From IMG/VR virus record IMGVR_UViG_2537562190_000015: a stretch of DNA of 40,105 nucleotides; one strand, written 5' to 3'. A model generated the notes under the pieces. That model saw only the letters and a program-made list of their open reading frames with translations, did not search any database and was not told where the DNA came from. This DNA comes from a virus (lineage: Duplodnaviria; Heunggongvirae; Uroviricota; Caudoviricetes). A program made the position numbers and the translations under genes. Positions 18,318-37,393 of the stretch are shown piece by piece (position 1 is the first letter of the stretch; the number at the start of each line of letters is the position of its first letter).

Positions 18318-18337
<20 letters not shown>
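17018..18337 (-). CDS. C: capsid assembly protease C, with nested in-frame scaffold Nu3
   Basis: The 484-aa ORF over-extends at its 5' end; the lambda C-like sequence begins at TAELRNLPHIASMAFNEPLMLEPAYARVFF... (439 aa). The C-terminal half, in the same frame, corresponds to Nu3. Confidence 0.9.
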
Positions 18338-22017
<3,680 letters not shown>

Positions 22018-22043
<26 letters not shown>

Positions 22044-22563
22044 TCAGCAACCCCGGTATCAGTTCATCCAGCGCGGCTGCTTTGTTCATGGCTTTGATGA
22101 TATCCCGTTTCAGGAAATCAACATGTCGGTTTTCCAGTTCCGGAAAACGCCGCTGCACCGACAGGGGGAGCCCGTCGAGAATACTGGCAATTTCACCTGC
22201 GATCCGCGACAACACGAAAGTACAGAATGCGGTTTCCACCACTTCAGCGGAGTCTCTGGCATTCTTCAGTTCCTGTGCGTCGGCCTGCGCACGCGTAAGT
22301 CGATGGCGTTCGTACTCAATAGTTCCTGGCTGGAGATCTGCCTCGCTGGCCTGCCGCAGTTCTTCAACCTCCCGGCGCAGCTTTTCGTTCTCAATTTCAG
22401 CATCCCTTTCGGCATACCATTTTATGACGGCGGCAGAGTCATAAAGCACCTCATTACCCTTGCCACCGCCTCGCAGAACGGGCATTCCCTGTTCCTGCCA
22501 GTTCTGAATGGTACGGATACTCGCACCGAAAATGTCAGCCAGCTGCTTTTTGTTGACTTCCAT
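22018..22563 (-). CDS. Nu1: terminase small subunit Nu1
   Basis: 181-aa ORF MEVNKKQLADIFGASIRTIQNWQEQGMPVLRGGGKGNEVLYDSAAVIKWYAERDAEIENEKLRREVEELRQ...; lambda Nu1-like. Confidence 0.95.
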
Positions 22564-33244: not shown

Positions 33245-33792
33245 GCGTTAGTTTCTCCACAGTCACGACACGCCACGGCGCCCGGAGCTGCACACTCGCG
33301 GGCGTCATTACTTTCTGAAATGCAAAAAATTTTGTAGACCAGTGCTGCATGCTCCTGCAGCTTCGAAATTGAGAGGTACAGCTCGTCGTTAATTGCTGTC
33401 TTCTCATGCGGTTCCACTACACCGTCTTCAATTGCTGAACGAATCTGTTTTGAATAACTGCCGATCTGTTCAATGACCTCCAGCAGGCGTTGGTTGATAT
33501 CGGCGTTGTCCACATCCTCGACATCAGGAAGAGACACAAAGACGCCATTTGCAGACTGCGCCACAGCGTCAGCAATGAAGTGAGTTCCACCAGCACGTTG
33601 CAAAATCATTGCCCATCCCAGCGGGAAAATCTGATCGCCATCGGCACGAAGGCGGTTAAATAATGCGTTCTCTGTTACATCCAGCCAGTCAGCAGCTTCA
33701 GCGTACCCCCCCGGCAACGCTGCGATAGTTTTTCTGACAGCTTTCACGTACCACTCAGGCTGTTTTTCTACTTTCCAGTGATGCTTACCCAC
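33241..33792 (-). CDS. CII-like / YdaT-like early regulatory protein (183 aa)
   Basis: Sits immediately downstream of cro and overlaps it; family assignment is from position and vague recollection only. Confidence 0.4.
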
Positions 33793-34045
33793 GGTTCACC
33801 TCCTGTTCCTGTGGTTTAAACCCATTCTGGTTTTGGCTAGATTGAAAACGTGCCGGATAAAGAATCTGCATTTCGCTGACTTCACCCTTAAAAAAATTGG
33901 CTAAACGTTCTGCAAGCTCGATAGATGGAATCTGCTCCAGCCTCTCAATACGACTCAACGTCGCTGGATTGACTTGAACACCCGCAGCAACATGCTGCAA
34001 AGTGAAACCATGCGCCTTACGCACATTTCGTAATGGTGATTGCAT
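33785..34045 (-). CDS. cro: Cro-like HTH repressor
   Basis: 86-aa ORF MQSPLRNVRKAHGFTLQHVAAGVQVNPATLSRIERLEQIPSIELAERLANFF…; XRE-type HTH; divergent from cI. Confidence 0.75.
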   Translation of the reverse strand: MQSPLRNVRKAHGFTLQHVAAGVQVNPATLSRIERLEQIPSIELAERLANFFKGEVSEMQILYPARFQSSQNQNGFKPQEQEVNRG

Positions 34046-34049
34046 ACGT

Positions 34050-34140
34050 CCTCCAAATATTGCGCGTTATGCATGTTATTTCACGCAATTATTTTGCGCA
34101 AGTTGATTTGCTTATCACGCAATAAAGAAATGTAATAAAC
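34050..34140. promoter_or_regulatory. OR operator/promoter region (pR / pRM) between cro and cI
   Basis: Repeated TCACGCAA / TTGCGCAA half-sites (TTTCACGCAATTATTTTGCGCAAG, TTATCACGCAATAAA) in a 97-bp divergent intergenic region. Confidence 0.6.
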
Positions 34141-34142
34141 GC

Positions 34143-34835
34143 ATGAACATAGGAAACCGAGTCAGACAACTTCGCCAAGCGAAGAACATGAAAATCGCCG
34201 ATCTCGCTGAAGCGATAGGAGTAGATGCGGCGAACATCTCGCGCTTAGAAACGGGTAAGCAAAAACAATTTACCGAACAAACACTGAGTAATATTGCCAA
34301 GAGCTTAGGTGTTGATATTGCTGATCTCTTTACCTCTGCCCACAAAAGTAATACTGTATATAAAAACAGTAATAATGAGGATGTTGCGCAGGTGAAGGAT
34401 GTGTTCCGTATTGAAATGCTGGATATCAGTGCCAGTGCGGGAAATGGCCTTATCCAGGGCGGTGATGTCATTGATGTGATTCATGCCATCGAATACAGAA
34501 CTGATAATGCTGTATCAATGTTCGGCGGACGACCAGCCAATCACATCAAAGTTATCAACGTTCGTGGGGACAGTATGTGTCCAACCATTGAGCCAGGAGA
34601 TCTCATCTTCGTTGATGTCAGCATCAATCAGTTTGATGGTGATGGTATATATGTCTTTGGTTTTGATGACAAAATATACGTTAAAAGACTTCAAATGATT
34701 CCTGACAAACTGCTGGTGATTTCTGATAACCAGATTTACCGTGAATGGGGAATTACTAGCGAAAACGAACACCGATTCATGGTCTTTGGAAAGGTCTTAA
34801 TCAGTCAGTCGCAAACCCTTAAGAGACATAATTAA
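34143..34835 (+). CDS. cI: CI-type prophage repressor (HTH plus S24 LexA-like autopeptidase)
   Basis: 230-aa ORF; N-terminal XRE HTH (KIADLAEAIGVDAANISRLETGK); Ala-Gly cleavage site (SASAGNG); S24 motifs GDSMCPTI (Ser) and KRL (Lys). Confidence 0.9.
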   Translation: MNIGNRVRQLRQAKNMKIADLAEAIGVDAANISRLETGKQKQFTEQTLSNIAKSLGVDIADLFTSAHKSNTVYKNSNNEDVAQVKDVFRIEMLDISASAGNGLIQGGDVIDVIHAIEYRTDNAVSMFGGRPANHIKVINVRGDSMCPTIEPGDLIFVDVSINQFDGDGIYVFGFDDKIYVKRLQMIPDKLLVISDNQIYREWGITSENEHRFMVFGKVLISQSQTLKRHN

Positions 34836-34854
34836 CCTCAATATCCCATCCATC

Positions 34855-34876
34855 GGCCACCGAAAGGTGGCTTTTT
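34855..34876 (+). terminator. intrinsic terminator after cI
   Basis: GGCCACC-gaaa-GGTGGC followed by TTTTT. Confidence 0.6.
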
Positions 34877-34877
34877 A

Positions 34878-34940
34878 TTACCTATAAATTTGCATATCAC
34901 GCAAATATCACTTGCATATCTCGCAATTTAATTTTATCTT
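34878..34940 (+). promoter_or_regulatory. OL operator / candidate pL promoter region
   Basis: TTGCATATCACGCAAATATCACTTGCATATCTCGCAATTTAATTTTATCTT: same TCACGCAA-type half-sites as OR, and a TTGCAT…17 nt…TATCTT -35/-10 candidate. Confidence 0.5.
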
Positions 34941-35100
34941 TTGTTCCAGACCAACTACAGGATTACAACAAAATCTGGTTGCAACACGGTGCATGTGTCG
35001 TAAGCAGTCAGTAAATGTCAAAAACGAACAGGCAGGACGCCCACGAAGTAGCCGCCTGGGGCATATGAAGTCCAGGATGATTCGTTAGCAACAAAAAAGC

Positions 35101-35126
35101 GCCCTACAGGACGCTTAGCTCTTTAA
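35101..35126 (-). terminator. intrinsic terminator of the antisense zinc-ribbon gene
   Basis: Minus strand AAGCGTCC-tgta-GGGCGCTT followed by TTTTTT, 30 bp after the stop at 35155. Confidence 0.55.
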
Positions 35127-35154
35127 CAATCTGGATATCCACAACAGTAGTAAT

Positions 35155-35646
35155 CTACAGATTGCCGTTAAGTTTTCTGGACAACTCCTCAATGGATGGA
35201 GGCGATACGTAATCCGGATTTTTATTCATCAGAAACTTATTTTCACAGTGGAGGCACCTGCTTTTATGAAAAAGCTCATCTTCGCTAACCGGGAATGGTT
35301 GAAGTATCGATACTATCTTTTGTCCAAAACATTTTGGGCAAAGATGCATGGTTATGCTGCCACCGTTCACGATTACCTCCTTCGAGTATACAAAAGTACC
35401 CGACTCAAGTTGGTTAAGGATATAGCCTTCCGTCTGAGCCTCAAAGTTTTCGAATTCTGCAATTTTAGCTTTGAGAGAAGCATTTATTTCTTGATAAGAG
35501 CCCACCAGTTCAACGAGAGACACGCATTCGCGCTGAATAGACGCAAGCTTTGAGTTCAGCTCACCAATAGCCGCATTTACTTCAGCTTGAGTTTTTGCCT
35601 CGTTCATTAGTTTTGCAATCTGGGCTGTTTCACGAATAGCCGTCAT
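35155..35646 (-). CDS. hypothetical coiled-coil plus C-terminal zinc-ribbon protein (~163 aa); candidate lysogen-expressed moron
   Basis: MTAIRETAQIAKLMNEAKTQAEVNAAIGELNSKLASIQRECVSLVELVGSYQEINASLKAKIAEFENFEAQ… then …HLCPKCFGQKIVSILQPFPVSEDELFHKSRCLHCENKF (CxxC…CxxC). The upstream part of the 259-aa ORF-track frame is Arg/Pro-rich and was judged non-coding. Confidence 0.55.
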   Translation of the reverse strand: MTAIRETAQIAKLMNEAKTQAEVNAAIGELNSKLASIQRECVSLVELVGSYQEINASLKAKIAEFENFEAQTEGYILNQLESGTFVYSKEVIVNGGSITMHLCPKCFGQKIVSILQPFPVSEDELFHKSRCLHCENKFLMNKNPDYVSPPSIEELSRKLNGNL

Positions 35647-35946
35647 TGCTGCCGTTAATTCAGCGATCACATTGAATACTCTTATTGTTGTTGGGGATAT
35701 CCAGATTAACCGAATCCTTGTTGTTGGGGAATAACCAGGTCCACCTCGCCTGATGTGGCTAAAAGCAGGCACATAACAGCTAAGTATTTTCAACCAGAGA
35801 GAATCCTTAGCGTTGTGGTGAATGCGGCTCAGCGCACGCGGGTTAAGGTTGAGGCTGACAGTCGACCTTCTGTGGATACCCACCCGCCTGGTGTGCAACC
35901 TTCGCCAGGCACCGGGAGGCACCCGGCACCACAACTTTATGCTGTG

Positions 35947-36003
35947 TGTAGTCCTGGCGGTACCAGTTTGTACCCTTGCTTCCGGCTGGTACCGTCCTTT
36001 TTT
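35947..36003 (+). ncRNA. candidate small RNA 3' end / intrinsic terminator with partial resemblance to DicF
   Basis: 9-bp stem CGGTACCAG…CTGGTACCG followed by TCC TTTTTT; the segment CCTGGCGGTACCAGTTTGTACCC resembles the DicF core TTGGCGGTATCAGTTTTACTCC as recalled from memory. Confidence 0.3.
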
Positions 36004-36004
36004 G

Positions 36005-36091
36005 CAAAACAGAGAAGAGCATCACCGGACGACGGGCTCATAACCCAATCCATCCGGGCGGCTGCCACCGCAGGTGTTCTTCTCTGTTTTG
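36005..36091 (+). other. long imperfect hairpin (14-bp perfect arms CAAAACAGAGAAGA / TCTTCTCTGTTTTG plus 4 bp), candidate RNase III processing site in the early leader
   Basis: Inverted repeat read directly; it encloses a ~46-nt GC-rich loop and sits 50 nt upstream of the first early ORF's RBS. Confidence 0.5.
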
Positions 36092-36140
36092 TGGAGAAAC
36101 CAACCGACCTTGCAAGGTCGATATGATGAGGAGCAGCAAA

Positions 36141-36503
36141 ATGGCTAGCGAACGCAGTACTGATGTGCAGGCATTTATCGGGGAGCTGGACGGCGGCGTA
36201 TTTGAAACCAAAATCGGCGCAGTTCTCAGTGAGGTCGCTTCCGGTGTGATGAACACGAAAACCAAAGGGAAGGTCTCACTCAATCTGGAAATCGAACCGT
36301 TTGATGAGAACCGTGTGAAAATCAAACACAAACTCTCATATGTTCGCCCAACTAACCGCGGGAAAATTTCCGAAGAAGACACCACCGAAACGCCGATGTA
36401 TGTCAATCGCGGTGGTCGCCTGACTATTCTGCAGGAAGACCAGGGACAATTACTGACTCTTGCCGGTGAACCTGACGGAAAACTCCGCGCAGCAGGTCGT
36501 TAA
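36141..36503 (+). CDS. hypothetical early protein (YfdP-like, 120 aa)
   Basis: ATG preceded by GAGGAG at 7-nt spacing; MASERSTDVQAFIGELDGGVFETKIGAVLSEVASGVMNTKTKGKVSLNLEIEPFDENRVKIK…. Confidence 0.6.
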   Translation: MASERSTDVQAFIGELDGGVFETKIGAVLSEVASGVMNTKTKGKVSLNLEIEPFDENRVKIKHKLSYVRPTNRGKISEEDTTETPMYVNRGGRLTILQEDQGQLLTLAGEPDGKLRAAGR

Positions 36504-36568
36504 TATCGTTCGTAATAAACTGATTATTTATCTCATCACTGAATATCTTTATATAGTGAGGACTTATT

Positions 36569-37393
36569 ATGTCTCAGAACTTAGACGCAACCGCAATTAA
36601 TCAAATCCATGCCCTTATTTCTGCTCAGGGTGTTAATGAAATTATCAGTAAGATTGGTGCCGATGCTGTGGCATTGCCTGAGAATTTCCGCATTCATGAT
36701 CTGGAAAAATTTAATTTAAATCGCTTCCGTTTCCGTGGTGCACTTTCCACTGCCAGCATCGATGATTTTACCCGTTATTCTAAAGATCTTGCAGATGAAG
36801 GCACCCGCTGCTTTATCGATGCCGATAATATGCGTGCCGTCAGTGTGCTTAACCTGGGTACTATTGATGAGCCAGGTCACGCAGATAACACTGCCACTCT
36901 CAAACTGAAAAAGACAGCACCGTTCTCTGCTCTGTTGTCTGTTAACGGCGAGCGTAACTCCCAGAAGTCACTGGCAGAATGGATCGAAGACTGGGCCGAC
37001 TACCTTGTGGGCTTTGATGCTAATGGTGACGCCATTCAAGCAACAAAAGCGGCTGCGGCAGTCCGTAAAATCACGATTGAAGCAAACCAGACCGCTGATT
37101 TTGAAGATAATGACTTCAGCGGCAAACGCTCCCTGATGGAGTCTGTCGAAGCGAAGACCAAAGACATTATGCCAGTGGCATTTGAATTTAAATGCGTTCC
37201 GTTTGAAGGTCTGAAAGAACGTCCGTTTAAATTACGCCTCAGCATTATCACTGGCGATCGTCCTGTACTGGTTCTGCGCATTATTCAGCTGGAAGCGGTG
37301 CAGGAAGAAATGGCTAACGAATTTCGTGATCTGCTTGTTGAGAAATTCAAAGACAGCAAAGTAGAAACCTTTATTGGTACTTTCACCGCCTGA
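36569..37393 (+). CDS. hypothetical early protein (YfdQ-like, 274 aa)
   Basis: 274-aa [51 protein letters not shown]…; length and neighbourhood match the CPS-53 yfdQ family as recalled. Confidence 0.6.

Follow-up and report, generated by a model that had tools for sequence, protein, structure and literature searches.

The window analysed here is a 40,105-nucleotide (nt) stretch of DNA from a tailed virus (Caudoviricetes; IMG/VR record IMGVR_UViG_2537562190_000015). On its minus strand, between the immunity region and the first early-left gene, lies a small coding sequence, here called rip1, at positions 35155–35670. It encodes 171 amino acids (aa), begins with GTG and ends with a TAG stop codon at 35155–35157; a Shine-Dalgarno sequence, AAGAG, is located at 35679–35683, 8 nt ahead of the GTG, and is kept in the leaders of the orthologues. 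As judged from sequence profiles and the predicted fold, the gene is a divergent member of the Rip1 (ring interacting pore 1) family and not a new kind of system. We estimate a probability of about 0.75 that it encodes a Rip1-family anti-phage protein, carried as a moron of a lambda-like prophage.

Coding sequence and conservation

The initial annotation placed this gene in a minus-strand frame ending at 35155, which stands, and gave it an ATG start at 35646 and 163 residues, which do not. The GTG at 35670 lies 24 nt (8 codons) upstream of that ATG and is the real start, because most database homologues are 170–175 aa long, because nearly all matches to the 163-aa query (cluster representatives) align their own residue 9–12 to its residue 1–4, and because six orthologues, from E. 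coli O157, Salmonella, Citrobacter, Rac-like and Trabulsiella prophages, begin with GTG-ATx ('VIAEL/VIVEF'). Close orthologues all open with GTG-ATx-GCT/GTT, and in the six, AAGAG or a sequence similar to it stands 8 nt before the GTG. The frame stays open for 88 codons beyond the GTG (35671–35934, minus strand), up to a TTG at 35934 that would give 259 aa. GenBank entry PV340568 (PhiR49_1; locus L001, 3137–3865) annotates a 242-aa version, and some database entries have 186–243 aa. We rejected the long frame in its 259-aa and 242-aa forms, as it finds no support among homologues and crosses the promoter and a non-coding leader that is shared with unrelated genes; the extended annotations of 186–243 aa are probably mis-annotations.

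The reading frame is a real gene and more than a chance opening. Pairwise ratios of nonsynonymous to synonymous substitution rates (dN/dS) among the six orthologues are 0.09–0.28, at dS values from 0.18 to saturation (>2). The frame is conserved in related prophages, a property whose absence the initial annotation had named as refuting. A search of 1.84 billion cluster representatives (50% identity) returned 415 clusters at E≤1e-3, nearly all of them with proteins of 145–180 aa. Seven residues (Cys111, Cys114, Cys139, Cys142, Tyr83, Gly91 and Leu123) are invariant in a 27-member alignment that extends down to ~25% identity. Among 5426 complete E. coli genomes, 686 carry the 654-bp cassette (coverage ≥80%), essentially always on the chromosome.

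Family assignment and predicted structure

The protein has no meaningful match in Pfam or NCBIfam, and no family had been recognised for it at first. It belongs to phrog_1244 of PHROGs (E 2.4e-58), a cluster labelled as function unknown. The family profile matches chain L of PDB entry 9oox, 'ring interacting pore 1 (Rip1)', with an E-value of 7.6e-35, and the single sequence finds the same chain with phmmer (E 2.7e-7). This entry, released on 2026-02-04, contains Rip1 of Escherichia phage HK446 and the small terminase of Enterobacteria phage T6. In a direct BLASTP comparison, the protein is 27% identical to HK446 Rip1 (HK446_037) over 148 residues (E 4e-11), and hhalign gives probabilities of 99.6% to HK446 Rip1 and 99.9% to DMS3 gp25. 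The family is therefore not uncharacterised: phrog_1244 is Rip1, for which a mechanism has been published and a cryo-electron microscopy structure (9oox) is available.

An AlphaFold2 model built from the alignment has a mean predicted local distance difference test score (pLDDT) of 89.7. Residues 1–79 form two long helices (2–24 and 28–79), in agreement with the N-terminal helical region read at first sight. Residues 84–150 form a β-rich domain of seven strands that carries two CxxC knuckles, and a short C-terminal helix follows. The knuckles (Cys111, Cys114, Cys139 and Cys142) constitute a C4 zinc ribbon, which is the CPKC…CLHC pair of the initial annotation; all four cysteines are retained in the 27 homologues. 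The CxxC…SILQ…CxxC core of this domain is also present in HK446 Rip1 and DMS3 gp25. In a Foldseek search of the PDB, chains L and M of 9oox are the only matches at E≤1e-3 (probability 1.00, target TM-score (TMt) 0.53/0.74), and the next match has an E-value of 0.2. Thus, the profile and structure searches that had been proposed for this gene both point to Rip1.

The two helices followed by a four-cysteine zinc site superficially resemble a DksA/TraR-like protein, and the gene adjoins the immunity region, such that a nucleic-acid- or RNA-polymerase-binding regulator of prophage or host transcription might be considered. We give this reading almost no weight, since neither Pfam nor NCBIfam matches the protein to DksA/TraR or to any DNA-binding family, Foldseek yields no DksA/TraR structure, and the zinc site is embedded in a seven-stranded β-domain, unlike the C-terminal helix-zinc finger of DksA.

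The C-terminal tail (residues 151–171, NPDYVSPPSIEELSRKLNGNL; window 35155–35220) is predicted to contain a short helix at residues 160–167. The tail is a conserved feature of the enterobacterial 171-aa subfamily and of some distant members; HK446 Rip1 and the modelled part of 9oox lack it.

The protein has no transmembrane or hydrophobic segment; the maximal 19-residue Kyte-Doolittle mean is 0.85. For this reason, its sequence is consistent with a soluble pre-pore form.

A predicted sieB-type promoter and its leader

Conservation is much higher in the ~110 nt ahead of the GTG than in the coding sequence itself. The leader is ~90% identical between cassettes whose coding sequences differ with dS >2, and it is recognisable in HK446 and HK620, where protein identity is 27–29%. 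In P22, lambda and many relatives, a homologous leader stands in front of sieB, and the P22 record BK000583 annotates the sieB promoter and the start of the sieB RNA inside the homologous region. The initial annotation had compared the locus with sieB by position; the relationship is closer than that, as the promoter region is the same and a homologue of the protein occupies the sieB slot in HK446, HK620 and HK629.

By homology to P22 sieB, the promoter segment is located at 35685–35729 (minus strand). It contains a first copy of the repeat CCCCAACAACAA at the -35 position (35718–35729), a -10-like TAATCT (35703–35708), an inferred transcription start near 35697, and a second copy of CCCCAACAACAA at the 5′ end of the mRNA (35685–35696). 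Upstream of it lies a conserved 30-nt core, GCCTGCTTTTAGCCACATCAGGCGAGGTGG (35741–35770, minus strand), equivalent to positions of about -73 to -43 relative to the P22 sieB RNA start; CCCCAACAAC repeats are found in the leader besides this core. The core is nearly invariant in the form GCCTG(T)CTTTTAACCACATCAGGC(GAG/TCG)GTGG. It occurs once in the window, where 0.02 occurrences would be expected by chance, and at least 120 viral contigs hold one copy each.

We examined 80 contigs with the core (loci from L020–L139), 66 of which have a same-strand open reading frame of at least 50 aa within 140 nt. Six of these 66 are Rip1-like, and the others include SieB (Pfam E 3.2e-25), ECs1072-like proteins of 144 aa, small zinc-ribbon proteins and many orphans. 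No Rfam family covers the leader, literature searches with the core sequence and its complement returned nothing relevant, and we came across no account of the core as a shared cassette.

This leader, the occupation of the sieB slot in HK446, HK620 and HK629, and the annotation in 2001 of HK620 hkaP as a 'putative superinfection exclusion protein' would all suit a SieB-like exclusion or abortive protein that acts by a mechanism unrelated to ring sensing. (A literature search on hkaP gave only unrelated matches.) We regard such a mechanism as very unlikely, because the protein has no similarity to Pfam SieB, against an E-value of 3.2e-25 for a true SieB behind the same leader, because it has no hydrophobic segment, and because its homology to Rip1 is strong. 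The SieB-like and the DksA/TraR-like assignments were thus both rejected on the Pfam and NCBIfam searches, the fold search and the comparison with SieB cargo.

Two possible structures in the leader were also considered. An H-type pseudoknot in the core (GCCUG/CAGGC and CCAC/GUGG) found no support: where the 5′ GCCTG varies naturally, the change is mostly not compensated, and the 3′ halves were fixed by the search pattern itself. A shorter leader variant, found at L025, L099, L129, L134 and other loci and not in the window, has TGgTATxCT directly after the core, together with a hairpin, the 3′ arm of which runs up to the Shine-Dalgarno sequence. In this hairpin, position x clearly covaries with its partner (C-G 15, G-C 6, U-A 5 and A-U 4). 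The variant hairpin may act in cargo mRNA, in antisense operon RNA or in DNA, as TATxCT also resembles an extended -10.

Terminator and flanking inverted repeat

The unit ends in an intrinsic terminator at 35087–35116 (minus strand), with the stem at 35097–35116 and the U-run at 35087–35096. Read from 35116 to 35097, the stem has 8 bp, five of them GC, and a 4-nt loop, and is followed by TTTTTTGTTG; its folding free energy is -12.1 kcal/mol. The terminator is kept 3′ of the orthologues at L009 and L012. The gene had been credited with its own terminator at 35101–35126: the terminator is real, lies on the minus strand and follows the stop codon, although those coordinates are a few bases off.

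A 26-nt inverted repeat surrounds the coding sequence. Arm 1 (35128–35153) is directly 3′ of the stop codon, and arm 2 (35682–35707) spans the -10 element, the inferred start and the 5′ untranslated region. The arms are 85% complementary with a palindromic core, GGATATCC. The repeat is kept around the orthologues, and a degenerate form flanks the alternative cargo of E. coli strain D2 (see below). Pairing of the 5′ and 3′ untranslated regions of the mRNA through this repeat was considered and rejected, as it is used neither in the minimum free energy fold nor in the centroid fold of the predicted transcript. In the same predicted transcript, the 3′ arm folds locally with the end of the coding sequence.

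Position at the immunity region

The cI-type repressor (helix-turn-helix and S24 peptidase; 34143–34835, plus strand) is convergent with rip1, and its terminator is located at 34855–34872 (plus strand). Just past this terminator are two 17-mers, ATTTGCATATCACGCAA (34888–34904) and ACTTGCATATCTCGCAA (34910–34926), on the plus strand, which match the copy of the rightward operator OR at 34106–34122 and represent copies of the leftward operator OL (34888–34926). A plausible leftward promoter pL, TTGCAT-17-TATCTT (34912–34940, plus strand), can be read from the sequence and overlaps the OL copies. Because the OL 17-mers stand past the cI terminator, rip1 is antisense inside the pL unit, which runs rightward in the window, and ahead of yfdP. 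The first early-left gene past the antisense cassette is yfdP (36123–36503, plus strand; coordinates from the PhiR49_1 annotation), and the plus-strand order continues with yfdQ (DUF2303), yfdR and neighbours, then xis and int. The operator copies and the position of yfdP agree with the antisense placement between OL/pL and the first early gene that had been proposed, and the description of rip1 as a self-contained convergent unit also holds, as the gene opposes cI and has its own promoter region and terminator. The phage in the window has no recognisable N gene, and rip1 follows OL/pL directly.

Two other features were noted in the remainder of the pL leader. The region 35782–36005 (plus strand), between the rip1 cassette and yfdP, gives the sole Rfam match, which is to the sRNA family STnc100 (RF02076) and below threshold (score 40.3 bits, gathering score 47, E 6.8e-7); the match covers the full length of the model, and the region is kept in SfII-like phages. 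A 24-nt inverted repeat (36005–36028/36068–36091), 83% complementary with its arms 39 nt apart, is located at or upstream of the yfdP start and could be a leader hairpin or attenuator.

Genomic contexts and exchange of cargo

In all seven contexts examined, the rip1-like gene opposes the surrounding lytic operon. It is found in the pL leader of the window prophage; directly after N, in the classical sieB position, in HK446, HK620 and HK629; after cro in the pR operon of a Salmonella prophage; between cI and xis-int in Citrobacter-type prophages; in the early-left operons of Rac-like and Trabulsiella prophages; and between terS and terL in DMS3-like phages. At the Salmonella enterica locus (L009/L010, 5001–5516), a 75%-identical rip1 with the same leader lies antisense between a YdaS/cro-like gene and replication genes, which shows that the cassette can also reside away from the pL side. 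A convergent gene lies downstream at 70 of the 76 IMG/VR loci that hold close relatives. Most of these convergent genes encode repressors, of at least 10 unrelated types, and the S24 'GDSM' motif is found in many of them, which bears out the expected recurrence next to cI in other prophages.

Comparison with related phages supports the view that rip1 is exchangeable cargo, as the slot is occupied by other genes in SfII, mEp460 and E. coli strain D2. SfII shares 34001–35086 and 35741–36109 with the window, and mEp460 shares it up to 34995 and from 35955. PhiR49_1 shares 35020–36700, with a different repressor. Strain D2 shares 35020–35134 and 35687 onward, and in the intervening D2 locus (L008, 3049–3716; NZ_CP010137) an ECs1072-family phage-associated protein and a second small open reading frame replace rip1. 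The D2 slot is a clean swap of cargo between a conserved promoter and a conserved terminator. Its junction, at 35686/35687, is just after repeat 2 and inside arm 2 of the 26-nt inverted repeat, which indicates that the swap spares the promoter and the first ~10 transcribed bases and replaces the ribosome-binding site and cargo.

The location of the gene on the opposite strand of the pL leader, and the presence of other cargos behind the same leader in this slot, raise the question of whether the unit matters only as antisense transcription that damps or insulates pL, with an incidental reading frame. That is a very improbable account of a frame that is under strong purifying selection, retains its cysteines down to ~25% identity and encodes the same protein in different operons. 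Interference by antisense transcription may come on top, for example by shutting rip1 off when pL fires, but it cannot explain the reading frame.

Proposed mechanism

The study of Rip1 (Patel, McCarthy, Taylor et al., Nature 651:1060, 2026; doi 10.1038/s41586-025-10075-1) is summarised in a 2026 review (PMC13434031), a meeting report (PMC12908700) and a citing paper (PMC13601566). According to these accounts, Rip1 is a prophage protein encoded between the terminase genes of a Pseudomonas prophage, with homologues that are widespread in proteobacterial prophages. As summarised there, Rip1 alone is non-toxic and cells round up on superinfection; escape mutants map to the portal in Pseudomonas phages or to the small terminase in E. 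coli phages. These summaries also describe a cryo-electron microscopy structure in which 12 Rip1 subunits surround an 11-mer small-terminase ring, with the C-terminal half of Rip1 touching the ring and the N-terminal amphipathic helices forming a pore that releases dye from liposomes.

By homology, the window protein would be a sensor and an effector at once. In the lysogen, leftward transcription would proceed from the sieB-type promoter of rip1 to its own terminator, independently of the repressed pL, as suggested by the homology to P22 sieB and the anatomy of the cassette. The 171-aa product would be soluble, with no transmembrane segment, and, if it behaves as the published Rip1, harmless alone. 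Late in superinfection, its zinc-ribbon/β-domain would bind the outer rim of small terminase or portal rings, as 9oox and the published summary suggest. The ring could then template a collar of ~12 Rip1 subunits, the N-terminal helices of which would form a pore in the inner membrane. As proposed for Rip1, this pore would collapse the cell before the progeny mature, an outcome equivalent to abortive infection. The gene was first put forward as a phage-defence or regulatory candidate; homology to Rip1 favours defence, and the regulatory alternative finds no support. The defence function is supported by this homology, which amounts to 27% identity to HK446 Rip1.

Several points weigh against this interpretation. 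With 27% identity to HK446 Rip1 and ~30% to the Pseudomonas homologues, the trigger specificity, and even the formation of a pore, could differ, and the 21-residue C-terminal tail is missing in HK446 Rip1. The N-terminal helices are moderately amphipathic: their maximal hydrophobic moment of 0.44 is reached by 30% of shuffled sequences, and their mean moment is not clearly above that of shuffles (p ~0.05). A scan of 33700–36700 with the sigma-70 consensus found no promoter, and expression of rip1 in the lysogen is a prediction. PADLOC-DB 2.0.0 (2023), a version that predates Rip1, gave a chance-level match only (E 0.059); there is no independent call from a defence database because PADLOC (2023) has no model for the Rip1 family. 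Finally, the mechanism of Rip1 is taken here from section 8 of the review PMC13434031, a meeting report (PMC12908700), PMC13601566 and the title of 9oox.

The low identity, the subfamily-specific tail and the weak result of the amphipathicity test would be compatible with a protein that has the Rip1 fold and a diverged role, such as the timing of lysis or packaging through binding of the resident phage's ring proteins, or a response to a trigger other than a ring. Among the proteins of the resident prophage are Nu1 of the lambda type (small terminase), gpA and a portal of the lambda family, which may bear on this reading. We consider a diverged role unlikely, given that the length, the secondary structure and all invariant residues are common to the whole family, the studied members among them, and that the anti-lytic orientation and the sieB-type promoter argue for expression in the prophage state and against expression in the lytic growth of the phage itself.

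If the protein is a Rip1-type defence, as we favour, the question of self-protection arises. Elsewhere, P22 Esc counteracts SieB and JBD26 anti-Tab counteracts Tab (PMC10884400 for Tab); no partner gene of this kind, an anti-Rip1, is evident in the resident prophage. We speculate that its own rings are not recognised, or that head-on transcription from the derepressed pL silences rip1 on induction. The resident packaging genes (Nu1, gpA and portal) are located at 18318–22563 on the minus strand.

Two suggestions go beyond the published Rip1. The 171-aa enterobacterial subfamily, with its own tail, may recognise a different ring trigger than HK446 Rip1, and the prophage may be spared as transcription from the derepressed pL runs head-on through rip1. 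The 30-nt core and the structured leader may be a portable RNA/DNA regulatory and recombination module for the expression and shuffling of defence cargo. Taken jointly, these two suggestions are tentative and on balance rather doubtful.

The product of this gene, listed as a 'hypothetical protein' in roughly one of every eight complete E. coli genomes (O157:H7 prophages among them), can now be named as a Rip1-type abortive-infection defence by homology, which has a bearing on host range in phage therapy and on the interpretation of prophage immunity regions. The Rip1 family would gain a divergent subfamily and, with it, a new genomic slot: the pL leader in prophages that resemble SfII and CPS-53 and lack N. 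The shared sieB-type leader is a possible handle for mining defence genes of prophages and may be the more useful observation.

Comparison with known systems

HK446 Rip1 is the closest characterised relative. The two proteins belong to one family by profile and fold, are of comparable length (164 and 171 aa), and consist of helices followed by a β/zinc-ribbon domain. Both are prophage-encoded, lie antisense in the pL operon near the immunity region and are preceded by a sieB-type leader. They differ in sequence (27% identity) and position, as the HK446 gene sits after N, whereas the window gene sits after OL/pL; the window protein additionally has a GTG start and the extra tail at residues 151–171.

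DMS3 gp25 aligns with the window protein at an hhalign probability of 99.9%, with ~30% identity over 88% of the length, and is likewise encoded on the strand opposite to the surrounding operon. In contrast, the DMS3-like homologues reside in a late (packaging) operon, lack the sieB-type leader and belong to high-GC genomes.

SieB of P22 and lambda shares the promoter and leader cassette, the antisense position in the early-left operon, expression from the prophage and an exclusion of the abortive type. However, it is an unrelated membrane protein of 192 aa (Pfam PF14163), whereas the window protein has neither a match to SieB nor a transmembrane segment.

JBD26 Tab is an unrelated 83-aa protein that is paired with anti-Tab, and no comparable partner is seen at the window locus. 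Despite this difference, it is also a small, single-gene, minus-strand prophage defence with its own promoter, and it occupies the slot that holds Rip1 homologues in sister phages (PMC10884400), the same moron slot as that of DMS3 gp25. Tab also acts on a virion-assembly protein, blocking tail assembly via the tape measure protein (PMC10884400).

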